Of a stretch of DNA of 32,000 bases, positions 81 to 14,562 are shown one piece after another. The stretch comes from Promethearchaeota archaeon (GTDB lineage Archaea > Asgardarchaeota > Lokiarchaeia > Sigyniarchaeales > Promethearchaeaceae). The notes under the pieces were generated by a model, which had not been told where the DNA came from, searched no databases, and saw nothing but the letters and a program-made list of their open reading frames with translations. The DNA lies in the NCBI GenBank assembly GCA_016933055.1, contig JAFGBS010000004.1, forward strand, positions 90,001 through 122,000, in the 5' to 3' direction. The position numbers were made by a program, and so were the translations under genes. The first letter of the stretch is position 1; every line of letters starts with the position of its first letter.

Positions 81-602
81 CTAACTGATAAATTCAAATT
101 CAAAAACACATGGCTTTTGGGATTCCATCGAAATATCCGTCAATTTAGGAAACACCTCTGCGCCAGCAAATGCTAGAGATCCTAAAAAAATGCCACTATA
201 TAAATTAGAAATGAGAGTAGCATCTTGTTTGGATTGTACCTCTTGCACGATGGAATTGAATACGGAAATCTTCACACTAGTATTCTCAATATAACTCATT
301 TCAAATTTCCCATAACCCATATTCATCAAGTTCACTAACAATTCCTGAAAAAGTTGCTTTTTGGACTTTATTTTTCGGTTTTCTTGGATATTTTTACACA
401 ATGCTTTTCCTATAGTTTTTCCCGTCCAAATTAAAATATCTTCTGATCCACTCCCTATTAGATCTCCTAGTTGAACCAAATCATAAGGACGCATTATCAC
501 TAAAGCGAAATCCGTGTCTTTCAAGTAAATATGGGATTTATCAGAATCTAAAGAAATATTTTTAAGATTTTTTGAAGCCAATCGTCTAAACATTTGAACC
601 AT
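81..602 (-). CDS. V4R / TRAPP(Bet3)-like domain protein
   Basis: Pattern ILIWTGKTIGK ... LMNMGYGKF ... LYSGIFLGSL ... PCVFEFEF fits the V4R/Bet3-like fold; recognised by eye. Confidence 0.65.
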   Translation of the reverse strand: MVQMFRRLASKNLKNISLDSDKSHIYLKDTDFALVIMRPYDLVQLGDLIGSGSEDILIWTGKTIGKALCKNIQENRKIKSKKQLFQELLVNLMNMGYGKFEMSYIENTSVKISVFNSIVQEVQSKQDATLISNLYSGIFLGSLAFAGAEVFPKLTDISMESQKPCVFEFEFIS

Positions 603-718
603 CTGTGCGTTTTGTTATATGTACATTATTTCTGTTTTTTAATTTATCCTTGATCACGCAAGTTTAAAAAACACAAACCATTCATTTCTATGACTAGGAA
701 GATTAGGAATCTTCTTGA

Positions 719-1012
719 AACTCTTCTTTGAATGAGTGGAGCCGTACCTATAGCGGTAAGCAATCTGAGATATTTGGACGTTCAAATACGATCCGTTACT
801 ATCGTCGATGAGTAGTGAACTTAGAACGGCAAGTAGCCCAAAGCTCTTCTTGTAGGAGGGGGGTAATTGGGGTTGCACCAATCCGATCAGGCCCGGGAGG
901 GAGCAATCGTAAGTGCACTATTTTGTGCGACTAATGATTTGCTATGAGACCAGTACCAGTATTGGATTTGGACTGAAAAATATCGAGGATTGGGTCACTT
1001 TGTTAAGGAGTT
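719..1012 (+). ncRNA. ffs: Signal recognition particle (7S) RNA; ends approximate
   Basis: Helix 8 CGAU-CAGGCCC-GGGA-GGGAGCA-AUCG (SRP54-binding loop, GNRA tetraloop); helix 6 CCCAA..CUCUUCUU-GUAG-GAGGGGGG..UUGGG; UGCAC/GUGCA stem; helix 5 pairings UUAG/CUAA and CGAUCC/GGAUUG; terminal pairings AGUG/CACU and AACUCUU/AGGAGUU. Confidence 0.88.
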
Positions 1013-1578
1013 AGAGGGATAAAGGGAAATAAGAATTCAAGCATATTATAAAAAGCGGTTACTACTCCTCTACCCTGGTTAGCAATCGTAGGAATTAATT
1101 TGAATTTAAGAAATTTAGATAATTGAAAATGGGAGATAATTTGCTCCTCTGATACAATACTTGGTAAATCTCTTTTATTTAAACAAACAACAATTGGGAT
1201 TTGATAAAAATTTTCTCCATAATATAGAAAAAGCTCATTCCATGACCGTGTATTATCTAAGAGAAATGCATATTGAGAATCTGCAACAAAAATAATACCA
1301 TCTAAATTCGTTACTGTGGCAGGTCTTGTACTAGCATAAAAGTCTTGACCCGTGGCAGAATACAATAAGATTTTTAGTTTCCAATCATTTCCCGTGATTG
1401 TGATACTCCCAAAATCAAAAACTAAAGTTCTTCCGGTAGTAGTTTCGATGGATCGTAAATTTTGTTCTTGTCCATAATAATTCATTAGATATTTCAAGGA
1501 GGTTGTTTTACCGGACATCGCGGGTCCAAAATATACAATCTTTATTTGGATTATCTTTGTACTTGAGTATATTATCAT
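1003..1578 (-). CDS. MglA-like small GTPase (likely start ATG 1578)
   Basis: P-loop GPAMSGKTT, switch I TTGRTLVFDF, G3 SATGQ, G4 NKRD, G5-like TIANQGRGV; GGGG SD-like element upstream of ATG 1578. Confidence 0.9.
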   Translation of the reverse strand: MIIYSSTKIIQIKIVYFGPAMSGKTTSLKYLMNYYGQEQNLRSIETTTGRTLVFDFGSITITGNDWKLKILLYSATGQDFYASTRPATVTNLDGIIFVADSQYAFLLDNTRSWNELFLYYGENFYQIPIVVCLNKRDLPSIVSEEQIISHFQLSKFLKFKLIPTIANQGRGVVTAFYNMLEFLFPFIPLTP

Positions 1579-1582
1579 TTTT

Positions 1583-2512
1583 TTATCCCCACAAGCTTTC
1601 AATTAAGTCCTCTTTATATTTCATGGGTTCTGTCTCAATTTCTCCTGTAAAAATTTCGCCCCACTCCGCTTTAATAAATTGAGTCAATCGACTAAAGGAG
1701 GCATTAGAATAGGATACTGTATCTAAAATTGTCTGATCACTCAGTTCCGTCTTCACATTTAACGAATTCAAAATCGATATTTTATTTAATATAGAAAATA
1801 CTCTTCGAGCAGCATTATAAAATTCCAGAATTTGGATCTTGAAAATATTTCGTTTTAGATTCTGCTCTTCAAAGCTAAAATCTAATAGTTCCTCCCGTAA
1901 TTCTTTAGAAAAATTTTTGAGTAGAGACAATCTTTGTTCAAAAATTCGGCGCATTTTCGTAATCGAATTATCAACAAATGTAATTGCTTTAGAATATATC
2001 AATTTTTCAAATTTTAGGTTTGAATTTTTAAATTTACTACCCACCATATTAACAACAATTTCATCATTAGAATTTTCAATTAACAAGAAGTTTTGGATCT
2101 TCTTCTGTACCATCTGTATTATGAAACTTAATCTTGCATTAAATCCGTCCTTATTGACTTTGGATTCATCTGACATAATATGATAACATAGAATCCAAGA
2201 TTTGAAGGAATTAAACAAGTGTAAAGCCTTGTGAAGAGCATCATTAGGGCACACAACTATATACCGGTTGGTATCATAATTAATTTCTTCCTCTTGTAAT
2301 AGCATATCCAATTCATTATTGGAAATAAAATCAGTATAAAAGATCAATTTCGTTCGAAAACTCATAATATCCGCTAAACTGTTAGCAAAAAATTCAACAT
2401 CCTCTTTGTCCGTTCCCGCAATTAGAACGGGGAGGCGATCTAGAAGACATCTCAACACAATAGAGAATTTCTCCTCTCCAATGTCAAATACTGCGTCATC
2501 AATCGATTTCAT
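1583..2512 (-). CDS. Hypothetical protein, possible cDENN/dDENN-like fold
   Basis: 309-aa ORF tightly packed between roadblock and GTPase genes; LRCLLDRLPVLIAGTDKEDVEFFANSLADIMSF resembles the start of the cDENN domain; product is inference. Confidence 0.5.
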   Translation of the reverse strand: MKSIDDAVFDIGEEKFSIVLRCLLDRLPVLIAGTDKEDVEFFANSLADIMSFRTKLIFYTDFISNNELDMLLQEEEINYDTNRYIVVCPNDALHKALHLFNSFKSWILCYHIMSDESKVNKDGFNARLSFIIQMVQKKIQNFLLIENSNDEIVVNMVGSKFKNSNLKFEKLIYSKAITFVDNSITKMRRIFEQRLSLLKNFSKELREELLDFSFEEQNLKRNIFKIQILEFYNAARRVFSILNKISILNSLNVKTELSDQTILDTVSYSNASFSRLTQFIKAEWGEIFTGEIETEPMKYKEDLIESLWG

Positions 2513-2522
2513 ACAATTTAAC

Positions 2523-3566
2523 CTACTTCAACATGATACCGTTAATTATGTGTTTTAATTCAAAGGAATTAACGGGATTTTCAATTACTTGAGCCTCTTT
2601 TACGATTTTGTTCAATACAATTAAAAATCTAGGGAGTATAAGGCGTAACAATCCCAATTTTTGTCTTCCCTTTTTGACCGTAAGGGTAAAAATCCCATCC
2701 CCAAGTGGCACTGTAAATTGATAGTAACTCATACATTCCAATAATATAGAGGAAATTTTCATTTTTTTTAATAACCAAGCACACCGGTTTGCCGTAGAGT
2801 ACAACGCATAAGACATTGCTGCTTCATGTTCAAAATCCAACTCAGAAAAATTCCCCTCATTCAAGTAAGTAGAGACAATAAACCCTCCTGAAACGGTCAA
2901 ACTTGCTCGCGTCATATCAAGAACTGTTGAAGTGAGTTTTTGGTATGCTTGATCCATTTTAGCAAGGGTATTCTCTGAAAAACAGAAAGAGGTTGTGTTT
3001 ATCCGAAGAGTTTCTTTTGTATCTTCTTTAATACTGAAGGATTCTAGGAGATGGGCAATTTGTTTATCATCATATCGTCGTAAAGGGGGTTTGAATGATT
3101 CTCCCGTAAGTATCAATGATTTTTTTATCTCTCGTAAACTTTCCCGGGTTTGTAAGAAAACCCCTCCGAGATTGACTTTTGGTGCAGCTGTAATCGCAAT
3201 AAAAAATTCTTCATTTTTATTATCTATGTCTTGTCGAATCAAGATGCGATCAATAGGATCATCCATGGAATTTTTTAAAGGAGCGAGAAGGATTTTAGAG
3301 GATTTACCTTCGAGTAATATGTATTTTAATTCATCAGGATGAAGATGTAATCCTAAATTATAAATCGCAGAACTGGCAGAAGAAATATTGAAGATCTCGT
3401 CTCTTGATAACCATACTCCGGATGATTGGATGGGATTACCATCCCGTTGGGTTAACACTGCATTTTCTACACCGTTAACTTCTTTTATTTTTTCCAAACT
3501 TATTTTTATCTGATCCGCTGGCATGTATAATCCTTTGAATGAATCTAATAGGTTCTTCCACAGCAT
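2523..3566 (-). CDS. Tandem roadblock/LC7 (MglB-like) domain protein
   Basis: Domain 1 GVENAVLTQRDGNPIQS...ISSASSAIYNLG...YILLEGKSSKILL...NLGGVFLQTR; domain 2 TRASLTVSGGFIVS...EAAMSYALYSTA...SILLEC...KLGLLRLIL. Confidence 0.85.
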   Translation of the reverse strand: MLWKNLLDSFKGLYMPADQIKISLEKIKEVNGVENAVLTQRDGNPIQSSGVWLSRDEIFNISSASSAIYNLGLHLHPDELKYILLEGKSSKILLAPLKNSMDDPIDRILIRQDIDNKNEEFFIAITAAPKVNLGGVFLQTRESLREIKKSLILTGESFKPPLRRYDDKQIAHLLESFSIKEDTKETLRINTTSFCFSENTLAKMDQAYQKLTSTVLDMTRASLTVSGGFIVSTYLNEGNFSELDFEHEAAMSYALYSTANRCAWLLKKMKISSILLECMSYYQFTVPLGDGIFTLTVKKGRQKLGLLRLILPRFLIVLNKIVKEAQVIENPVNSFELKHIINGIMLK

Positions 3567-3645
3567 TATTTAAACTTGTAAAAAAAAGAGTCGGCGCAAG
3601 CATAAAGCTTAAATGGGAGAAATAGTGACTTAAAGCGAATCAAAT

Positions 3646-3660
3646 GAAAAAATTTATAAT
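3646..3660 (+). promoter_or_regulatory. Putative BRE + TATA box of the 16S rRNA transcript
   Basis: GAAAAAA-TTTATAAT about 180 nt upstream of the processing stem. Confidence 0.5.
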
Positions 3661-3840
3661 TAAGCTGAGACTCTAAATTATTACCTTTGAATCTATATCA
3701 GTAGATGAAAGGGTTATTACCAACAAACTCAAGACGCATATGTACGGCGTTTAGACCGGATTTAAGCATGAGCTAAATATGAAGGTACTTGTAATATATG
3801 CGCGATATCGTATGTGGTTCCCACTAGGGAACCGAGAAAT

Positions 3841-3877
3841 GCTTACTCTACATCCTTAAATGGTTGTGATCCCGTAA
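3841..3877 (+). other. 5' arm of 16S processing stem with bulge-helix-bulge motif
   Basis: GCTTACTCTA-CATC-CTTA-AAT-GGTTGTGATCCCGTAA pairs with 5475-5513. Confidence 0.9.
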
Positions 3878-3938
3878 TTTCTTTAAATTACAACAAAAAT
3901 GTGACCATTACTCAATAGAAAATGGATCTGGAAGATTA

Positions 3939-5431
<1,493 letters not shown>

Positions 5432-13113: not shown

Positions 13114-13567
13114 CTTTTGTTCTACTTAACACTTCATAGTTTAAATCGTAAAAAGTAGGACCCCAAGTAAATTTCGACAAGAGAAATTCAGCTTGATTTT
13201 CATGGCCAATTATAAAAAGGGCTGCAGCTAAAGCTTCTACTGATGACAATTTTTCCCATCTTCCATAATTAACGCTATTAGCAGCAAGCAATTTAGGTAA
13301 TTTTCTACCAGTGTGGAAATCTTTAAACACCTTTTCAACTAGTTTCCAGGAACAATCAATAGCTACTAGCCCATAAGTTTCAATTTGTGATTTATCTTCT
13401 ATACTTAGGATTTTTGGGGAAAACGGATCTAAAATTATCGCCTTTTTTGGTAAAAATTTGAGTTTAGGTACCAGCTTAACTAAATTGAACTTTCTTAGTT
13501 TTAAACTGGTACACTTTTTGGGATCACACTGCCCATAGTGAACTACAAATAATTTTGGATCTATCAT
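13079..13567 (-). CDS. tsr3: 16S rRNA aminocarboxypropyltransferase Tsr3 (likely start ATG 13567)
   Basis: QCDPKKCTSLKL, LDPFS, DCSW, RKLPKLLAANSVNYG, LSSVEALAAAL, FTWGPTF. Confidence 0.95.
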   Translation of the reverse strand: MIDPKLFVVHYGQCDPKKCTSLKLRKFNLVKLVPKLKFLPKKAIILDPFSPKILSIEDKSQIETYGLVAIDCSWKLVEKVFKDFHTGRKLPKLLAANSVNYGRWEKLSSVEALAAALFIIGHENQAEFLLSKFTWGPTFYDLNYEVLSRTKVQREGFEPPNY

Positions 13568-14562
13568 GAAAATTTCGCTGTACATAAGGAATTTATACTC
13601 TTAATAAATAATTCCGTTGTTTGTTCTGATCCAACTACTTTTTGTATGGAATGAACAATGTTTCGGATCTCTCCTAAAACGGGAATCGCACCATATGTTA
13701 AAGGAAATAAAGCGATAAACGTGATATCTTGGACGGCTGTGGCACCAGTACTTGTATCGGTGAATTGGAATTTACTCGAAGGACAAGCAATTATGCCATA
13801 ATAACTATCCCTATTTTTCGCCGAAAGACAAACATAAGACAACAAAGATCCCATTTTTAGTGAACCAGCTTCTTCCACCATTTTCTGGAAAGCCACATTG
13901 GTATTTGCACTAAAGGCTTCTACAGAAATTGGTAAATTTACAAGATTTTTATTTCTATGGTCAAATGTTAATCCGCTGGGAGCTACCAGACTATAGACTG
14001 CTAATACGGGATTTTTGACACTATCAAGAATATCATTAATCAAAATGATTTTATTTCTATCCTGTGGTTGACTGTTACCATAAGTTGTAAGCGATACTTC
14101 ACTACCCATTCCAAATAAATAGATCGCACTACGTACACTATTGCTAAATATCTCCATGTTTTGAGTCACATTTCTTGTACCGAAATAATTATCGATCTCT
14201 CGTCGTAAATGATAAATACAGGACCCAATGGTATCCGCATTCAATGGCCATTCTTTATTGTAATCATGCACAATTGTTAGCAGAGTCTGGCTTATTCGAA
14301 TGGTTATTAAACAAATTTTTTCAAAAAAGGAAAATGTAATGATCTGATTTTCCATTTGTAAATCACTCCAATTTTCATCACTCGATGAAAACGCAGCTGC
14401 AGATACGGATGTGATTGTGTTCGGATCAAGTTCCAAATCAGTATTTCTCCCAATACGTGCAATAGATAAACCACTTTCATCCGATAGAAGGACCATTAAC
14501 GTTGCATCCGAAGATCTCAAAATACTCGATAAATGTTTTACTAGCGATTCCCGTACACTCAT
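13564..14562 (-). CDS. Roadblock/LC7-like protein, probably two domains
   Basis: VLLSDESGLSIA...ITSVSAAAFSSS and YSLVAPSGLTFD...VEAFSANTNVAF patterns; GAGGTG SD; ATGA overlap with tsr3. Confidence 0.65.
   Translation of the reverse strand: MSVRESLVKHLSSILRSSDATLMVLLSDESGLSIARIGRNTDLELDPNTITSVSAAAFSSSDENWSDLQMENQIITFSFFEKICLITIRISQTLLTIVHDYNKEWPLNADTIGSCIYHLRREIDNYFGTRNVTQNMEIFSNSVRSAIYLFGMGSEVSLTTYGNSQPQDRNKIILINDILDSVKNPVLAVYSLVAPSGLTFDHRNKNLVNLPISVEAFSANTNVAFQKMVEEAGSLKMGSLLSYVCLSAKNRDSYYGIIACPSSKFQFTDTSTGATAVQDITFIALFPLTYGAIPVLGEIRNIVHSIQKVVGSEQTTELFIKSINSLCTAKFS

Follow-up and report, generated by a model that had tools for sequence, protein, structure and literature searches.

The minus strand of a 32,000-nucleotide stretch of a Promethearchaeota archaeon genome (GenBank assembly GCA_016933055.1, contig JAFGBS010000004.1, positions 90,001 to 122,000, or G000:C6:90001-122000 in our numbering; hereafter the window) carries three adjacent genes for a tandem-roadblock protein (Robl2, gene 1), a DENN-like protein (gene 2) and an MglA-type small GTPase (gene 3). 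This three-gene set is a real operon that is conserved across Asgard archaea. We consider it fairly likely that the operon encodes a self-contained nucleotide switch, in which the roadblock pair would serve as an MglB-type GTPase-activating protein (GAP) and the DENN-like protein would act on the same MglA-type GTPase. The operon is already known as a published prediction: Liu et al. (bioRxiv 10.1101/2020.10.19.343400; Nature 2021) predicted an Asgard operon of a LAMTOR1-like Roadblock, a small GTPase and a DENN protein, and proposed that the module is an exchange factor for guanine nucleotides (GEF) analogous to FLCN, with a GTPase described as 'Rab-like' and distinct from the Rag family. Our literature search turned up no experimental study of this module. 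What is added here is the assignment of the GTPase to the MglA type, the recognition of the roadblock protein as a tandem fusion, and a probable start for gene 1 at 3524. The three genes and a candidate promoter, in window coordinates and with the evidence behind each name, are as follows.

2523 to 3524, minus strand: tandem-roadblock protein, 333 aa (Pfam, AF2 model, VIA-align)
1583 to 2512, minus strand: DENN-like protein, 309 aa (AF2 model, VIA-align, AFDB clusters)
1003 to 1578, minus strand: MglA-type small GTPase, 191 aa (phmmer against PDB, orthologue alignment, tree)
3567 to 3574, minus strand: TATA-like box TTTAAATA, candidate operon promoter (read from the sequence)

The genome is 3.76 Mb in size and 91% complete. 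A full-length archaeal 16S rRNA gene at 3939-5429 (plus strand) marks the window as archaeal, and the host is a Lokiarchaeia-like genome. A preliminary description of the DNA had placed three co-oriented genes at 1003-3566, separated by 10 and 4 nt, and named them as a tandem roadblock, a DENN-like protein and an MglA-like GTPase. The minus-strand listing of open reading frames (ORFs), which gives 3566..2523 (347 aa), 2512..1583 (309 aa) and 1602..1003, bears out the orientation and both spacers, the first at 2513-2522 (TAG gttaaattgt ATG) and the second at 1579-1582 (TAA aaaa ATG). The GTPase reading frame opens with a TTG at 1602 (199 aa) and has an ATG at 1578 (191 aa). The three genes of that span stand, and the one boundary to be moved is the start of gene 1, which is probably the ATG at 3524, giving 333 aa, and not the ATG at 3566 (347 aa), because 333-335 aa is the length of the stored protein and of nearly every relative listed. 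The TATA-like box TTTAAATA, read at 3574-3567, directly adjoins the ATG at 3566 and lies upstream of the probable start at 3524. It is possible that this box is the operon promoter, divergent from the 16S rRNA gene, which lies ~370-410 nt away from the operon. No terminator-like site was found within 600-4000.

The arrangement of the three genes is not due to chance, since their order is kept wherever it was compared and the first two genes often overlap. The comparison covered 19 loci, one in this genome, two on metagenome contigs and 16 in genomes of other families, and these represent at least nine families of the phylum. The order tandem roadblock, DENN-like protein, MglA-type GTPase was found in 19 of 19 loci, with a 4-nt overlap between the first two genes in 9 of the 16 distant ones. 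A lack of conserved linkage in related genomes had been named at the outset as the main point that could refute the operon, and the linkage proved to be conserved. These three are the only gene families common to all 19 loci, and no conserved neighbours beyond them were found across the loci; the neighbours are lineage-specific and mostly housekeeping genes, such as the GPN-type ATPase, HD protein and CTP synthase of one large family. When 301 genomes of the phylum were searched with an alignment of close relatives of the DENN-like protein (A1), the gene was matched in 163 of them, including 66 of the 90 high-quality ones, mostly with one reported match each; about 160 genomes have the full set of three genes. 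Some families have it in all or nearly all of their genomes (74/76, 57/69, 15/19) and others are empty (0/28, 0/21, 0/11), and a broader profile (A4) found no DENN-like gene in the genomes sampled from three of the empty families (f6, f7 and f10, the genomes of the last two both 95% complete). The genome studied here has one DENN-like gene, one Robl2 orthologue and 38 small-GTPase matches, and a hidden Markov model search of it for distant DENN-like paralogues returned noise only, namely an ABC ATPase C-terminal region and one unrelated ORF.

The GTPase carries the P-loop GPAMSGKT, a switch I motif TTGRT (Arg50), a switch II motif SATGQ (Gln78) and NKRD. Pfam gave only generic Arf, Ras and Roc matches for it, and phmmer against PDB found Thermus MglA (3t12_A) at E 3.3e-25 and M. 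xanthus MglA at ~5e-25, with Arf next at 1.2e-5. The preliminary description had read TGRT and TGQ as holding the catalytic Arg and Gln of MglA; TTGRT and ATGQ do align to Arg53 and Gln82 of Thermus MglA, allowing for a 2-residue offset of the PDB chain, and across the 19 orthologues the P-loop GxAMSGK, G49-R50-T51, T76-G77-Q78 and NKxD are all invariant. A Thr or Ser in place of the Asp of the G3 motif DxxG (TxxGQ) is a defining feature of MglA, and this position is Ser or Thr in 19 of 19 orthologues ([ST]-x-T-G-Q), aligning to the Thr of Thermus LYTVPGQ. In a scan of one genome per prokaryotic species, Asgard orthologues came first (Promethearchaeia, Hodarchaeota, Thorarchaeota), followed by bacterial MglA proteins, which are the nearest non-Asgard relatives at 34-43% identity. 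A maximum-likelihood tree, midpoint-rooted and with several long branches among its outgroup rows, has a 98/97 branch that joins the operon GTPases, 16 bacterial MglA proteins and two paralogues of this genome, and 16 other small GTPases of this genome fall outside it. On the strength of the phmmer matches, the invariant motifs, the species scan and the tree branch, we assign the operon GTPase by its sequence to the MglA type and not to the Rab-like proteins.

For gene 1, Pfam Robl_LC7 (PF03259) matches the N-terminal domain at residues 24-99 of the 347-aa reading (E 1e-7, 32 bits; the Pfam cut-off is 23 bits). The AF2 model, built on a 30-row alignment (pLDDT 72.9, pTM 0.73), has two alpha-beta-beta-alpha-beta-beta-beta-alpha units, domain 1 at about residues 2-140 and domain 2 at about 181-313, with a low-confidence linker at 141-180. 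In an exhaustive VIA-align search of PDB, residues 181-313 matched Thermus MglB (3t1r_A) with Z 17.1 and a root-mean-square deviation (rmsd) of 1.7 Å over 129 residues, as well as Asgard roadblocks and LAMTOR subunits, and residues 2-137 matched the Thorarchaeota roadblock 7f8m_A (Z 11.9, rmsd 1.9 Å, 113 residues). The predicted structure indicates that the product is two MglB-like roadblock domains fused in a single chain, the tandem roadblock first described. The N-terminal domain is the better conserved of the two, with the pattern GVEN..L.Q.DG.P....G.W, and in the host's order it contains a lineage-specific insert of ~20 residues. Just before the DG of its hairpin Q-x-D-G-x-P, only close relatives consistently have R; across the 19 orthologues this position is R, K, Q or V. 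A 332-aa gene at 13564-14562 (minus strand) showed no BLASTP similarity to the gene 1 product.

The AF2 model of the gene 2 product (pLDDT 80.6, pTM 0.80) has two parts: residues ~1-160 form a cDENN-like alpha/beta domain, and residues ~163-285 form a dDENN-like domain that is entirely helical. In an exhaustive VIA-align comparison with 48,161 PDB representatives, the top six matches were all DENN structures (Z 10.1-13.0). The best was DENND10 (8p0v_M, Z 13.0), followed by FLCN at Z 12.1 (3v42_B, rmsd 3.5 Å over 187 residues) and 12.0 (6nzd_H), DENND1A (6ekk_A, Z 10.5), C9orf72 (7o2w_A, Z 10.2) and SMCR8 (6lt0_B, Z 10.1), and these alignments cover model residues 1-296, including both the alpha/beta and the helical parts. 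Among AFDB clusters, matches at E 1e-3 to 1e-4 included entries for UDENN, AVL9 and DENND6. Judged from the model, the product has a cDENN+dDENN-like fold, in keeping with the DENN-like label it was first given; a longin/uDENN domain is absent from the 309-aa chain, which opens directly with the alpha/beta domain. No sequence-family match to gene 2 was found in Pfam, NCBIfam or PDB sequences. The 76 family members (the 19 locus proteins and relatives) are 270-345 aa long. There are 28 close relatives, and 77 clusters at 50% identity among 1.8 billion representatives; the relatives are all ~300 aa and labelled hypothetical.

In published MglAB work, one MglA is bound per MglB dimer, and the dimer works as a GAP by way of the Arg and Gln that MglA itself contributes. 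By analogy we infer GAP and GEF roles within this operon, as the preliminary description had also suggested. The fused roadblock pair would fold as an intramolecular pseudo-dimer that replaces the MglB homodimer and would bind one GTP-bound GTPase across its switch regions. It would then speed hydrolysis by positioning the GTPase's own Arg50 and Gln78, acting as an MglB-type GAP with no arginine finger supplied, a reading that fits the invariance of R50 and Q78. The DENN-like protein would act on the same GTPase, either as an exchange factor like the DENN GEFs or as the DENN half of a split roadblock/longin-DENN platform resembling FLCN-FNIP. For the output of such a switch, our best guess is a signal for polarity or for a membrane site. 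A complex prediction of Robl2, GTPase, DENN-like protein and GTP scored 0.01 for the DENN-like protein as partner against a mark of 0.32, with controls not run, and is evidence neither way.

Several observations weigh against a roadblock GAP paired with a DENN-like regulator. The DENN assignment of gene 2 comes from the predicted fold alone: the DENN, Folliculin and AVL9 Pfam profiles matched 0 of 19 family members at E <= 1, and a profile search of PDB sequences with the DENN-like family returned no DENN protein. Foldseek, first put forward as a check on each of the three proteins, did list DENN entries, but its matches in PDB, AFDB Swiss-Prot and Atlas were weak and mixed, with P-loop ATPases alongside DENND11 and AVL9, and it was only the exhaustive VIA-align search that set DENN structures apart from other folds. 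No invariant Arg was seen in the beta1-beta2 region of the gene 1 roadblocks, the finger site of longin GAPs (R27 is kept only among close relatives), and in this respect gene 1 is unlike the longin-domain GAP complexes FLCN-FNIP, GATOR1 and C9orf72-SMCR8, which have a conserved arginine finger in the region of the first beta-hairpin of the longin domain. Nothing about the output of the switch can be read from the genomic neighbours. Finally, in M. xanthus both GAP and GEF behaviour are reported for MglB on its own (Dinet et al. 2026), and a separate GEF is therefore not required.

This last point leads to a less likely assignment, in which the parts are the same and the roles differ. The tandem roadblock alone would provide both GAP and exchange activity, and the DENN-like protein would be an effector, a localisation adaptor or an inhibitor, reading or sequestering the GTPase-roadblock pair, and not a GEF. 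The analogies here would be RomR for MglB, and the DENN domains that serve as scaffolds in FLCN-FNIP and C9orf72-SMCR8. Because Dinet et al. 2026 report GAP and GEF properties for MglB and describe RomRX as an effector and not a GEF, the DENN-like protein may likewise be a scaffold or effector. The ranking of its structure matches is consistent with this, the two best being DENND10 and FLCN, above the Rab GEF DENND1A. To our knowledge the DENN parts of DENND10 and FLCN have no known exchange catalysis, which we count in favour of a scaffold or effector role. The strict co-occurrence of the genes and their frequent 4-nt overlap, however, would fit any stoichiometric partner, and do not separate a GEF from a scaffold or effector.

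The ATPase matches of gene 2 bear on where its fold comes from. Against PDB, Foldseek gave weak matches, mostly to P-loop ATPases, the best of them VirB11 (2pt7_B, E 1.8e-3) with PilT and CpaF also listed; the Atlas fold matches were T2SSE, CpaF and KaiC, and the best non-DENN VIA-align matches were GspE (2oap, Z 9.5) and FlaI (4ihq, Z 8.7), which superpose on the core of the alpha/beta domain and on some of the helical region. The P-loop proteins closest to the alpha/beta domain are ATPases of the PilT/VirB11/GspE/FlaI class. Such matches can be explained by the topology of cDENN, which Zhang et al. 2012 described as that of a minimal P-loop NTPase domain lacking the nucleotide-binding residues, with dDENN being all-helical. 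Gene 2, unlike these ATPases, lacks nucleotide-binding motifs: it has no Walker A motif and reads GTDKED after strand 1, where G-x-x-G-K-T would stand. With hhalign, its residues 14-58 align to the helix, strand 1, Walker A and following helix of the T2SSE ATPase family, a member of which is encoded close by, upstream of the window. Other residues stand in place of those of the P-loop, and the match is weak (probability 11%, E 0.0027), though in agreement with the fold matches to VirB11, GspE, FlaI and CpaF. Scored against the DENN-like profile, that neighbouring ATPase came 2nd among the genome's 243 ORFs with a Walker A, a ranking made post hoc. It is possible that cDENN descends from an inactivated secretion-type ATPase, but the hhalign match and the ranking are too weak to claim this.

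A wider reading that builds on such a descent seems doubtful to us. It would see the operon as keeping the ancestral, unfused form of the eukaryotic longin-DENN module, in which a roadblock pair and a separate DENN protein regulate an MglA-type GTPase and the cDENN comes from a PilT/VirB11-class secretion ATPase whose Walker A was lost. If true, DENN GEFs and FLCN-type complexes would originate in an archaeal MglAB-like polarity switch. Least probable is that the gene 2 product is unrelated to DENN and is instead a degenerate PilT/VirB11/FlaI-class pseudo-ATPase that has lost its Walker A and whose cDENN likeness is shared P-loop-like topology only: the Foldseek, Atlas, GspE and FlaI matches, the hhalign match with its ATPase ranking and the topology given by Zhang et al. 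2012 all fit this, but every DENN structure outscores every ATPase (Z 10.1-13.0 against <= 9.5) over the alpha/beta and helical parts, the independent profile-based study of Liu et al. named the family DENN, and the DENN and ATPase readings may be compatible, should cDENN have its own origin in an ATPase of this kind.

Returning to the switch of MglA-type GTPase, roadblock pair and DENN-like protein, we compared it with the closest known systems. The window holds one more copy of the operon of Liu et al., who had also published the FLCN/Ragulator analogy. Where their GTPase was called 'Rab-like', the one here belongs to the MglA clade and has the intrinsic Arg and Gln; the roadblock protein here is predicted to be a fusion of two roadblock domains, and the module was not found in about half of the genomes sampled here. 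Tran et al. 2024 noted that MK-D1, a cultured Lokiarchaeon, has a small group of MglA-like GTPases, and that the GTPase genes of MK-D1 do not generally share operons with roadblock genes. The present operon is an exception to that rule.

With the MglA-MglB switch of Thermus thermophilus and Myxococcus xanthus the operon shares the GTPase clade, the P-loop, the switch I Arg, the switch II Gln, the Ser/Thr-x-x-Gly-Gln motif and a roadblock partner within the same operon, whose C-terminal roadblock domain superposes on MglB with an rmsd of 1.7 Å in the model. It differs in having two roadblock domains fused in one chain and diverged from each other, in the DENN-like gene that stands between the roadblock and GTPase genes, and in its archaeal host. 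An association with motility genes is also not conserved here, a T2SSE-family ATPase gene being within ~6 kb of the operon in 6 of the 19 loci only.

The likeness to the eukaryotic longin-DENN modules (FLCN-FNIP, C9orf72-SMCR8, the DENND1 Rab GEFs and DENND10) lies in the cDENN+dDENN-like fold predicted for gene 2 and in the genetic coupling of a DENN-like gene to roadblock/longin-type domains and a small GTPase. Unlike those modules, the DENN part of gene 2 has no fused longin, the roadblock domains being encoded by the preceding gene, and it has no similarity at the level of sequence; its predicted client GTPase is of the MglA type and not a Rag, Rab or Arf. In eukaryotes, the Rab, Rag and Arf GTPases of membrane traffic and nutrient sensing are under the control of DENN and roadblock/longin proteins. 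An archaeal operon in which a GTPase of bacterial-type (MglA) chemistry is coupled to a roadblock pair and a DENN-fold protein is a compact system, and it could serve to test how regulators of this kind operated before there were eukaryotes. The value of the present analysis is in confirming the operon, sharpening the assignment of the GTPase and of the roadblock fusion, and offering clear biochemical tests. A complete single-contig genome of 4.4 Mb from the same family (L044) carries the operon, which suggests that cultured relatives may be usable.

The surroundings of the operon gave further observations. A full-length match to archaeal signal recognition particle (SRP) RNA (RF01857, model positions 1-317, 57.6 bits, E 1.9e-12) lies at 687-1001 on the plus strand. 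Its score is below the RF01857 gathering score of 96.5, which is why the default Rfam run missed it. The match lies in the gap of ~400 nt that divides the stop codon of the GTPase gene (1003-1005) from the next gene on the minus strand, and it is convergent with the operon, separating it from a pair of V4R-like genes. These are two paralogous genes of ~170 aa located after the operon, at 81-602 of the window (minus strand) and at G000:C6 89566-90063 (L004 13566-14063, minus strand), and they match each other at E 1e-8. Language-model features mark them as V4R/TRAPP(Bet3)-like with a score of 0.94, which we take as a lead only, and searches of Pfam and of PDB sequences gave no match for them. 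Of the relatives examined, only the two closest (L001, L002) have this pair behind the operon; it does not follow the operon in the other 16, more distant loci.

Just upstream of the window and convergent to the operon region, at L004 9255-13231 (plus strand), a 700-aa ATPase of the T2SSE family is encoded together with a small pilin-like protein and a membrane protein of 479 aa. A T2SSE ATPase close to an operon with an MglA-type GTPase is of interest because type IV pili are under MglA control in Myxococcus. The six loci with a homologous ATPase near the operon belong to four families (this genome together with L001, L002, L037, L043 and L045), which is too irregular an association to be called functional. 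The contigs of many relatives in the same order (L006-L033) end right beside the roadblock gene, at 1.4-2.3 kb upstream of the DENN-like gene. Such contig ends would be expected if the rRNA gene is also found there, as it would break assemblies.

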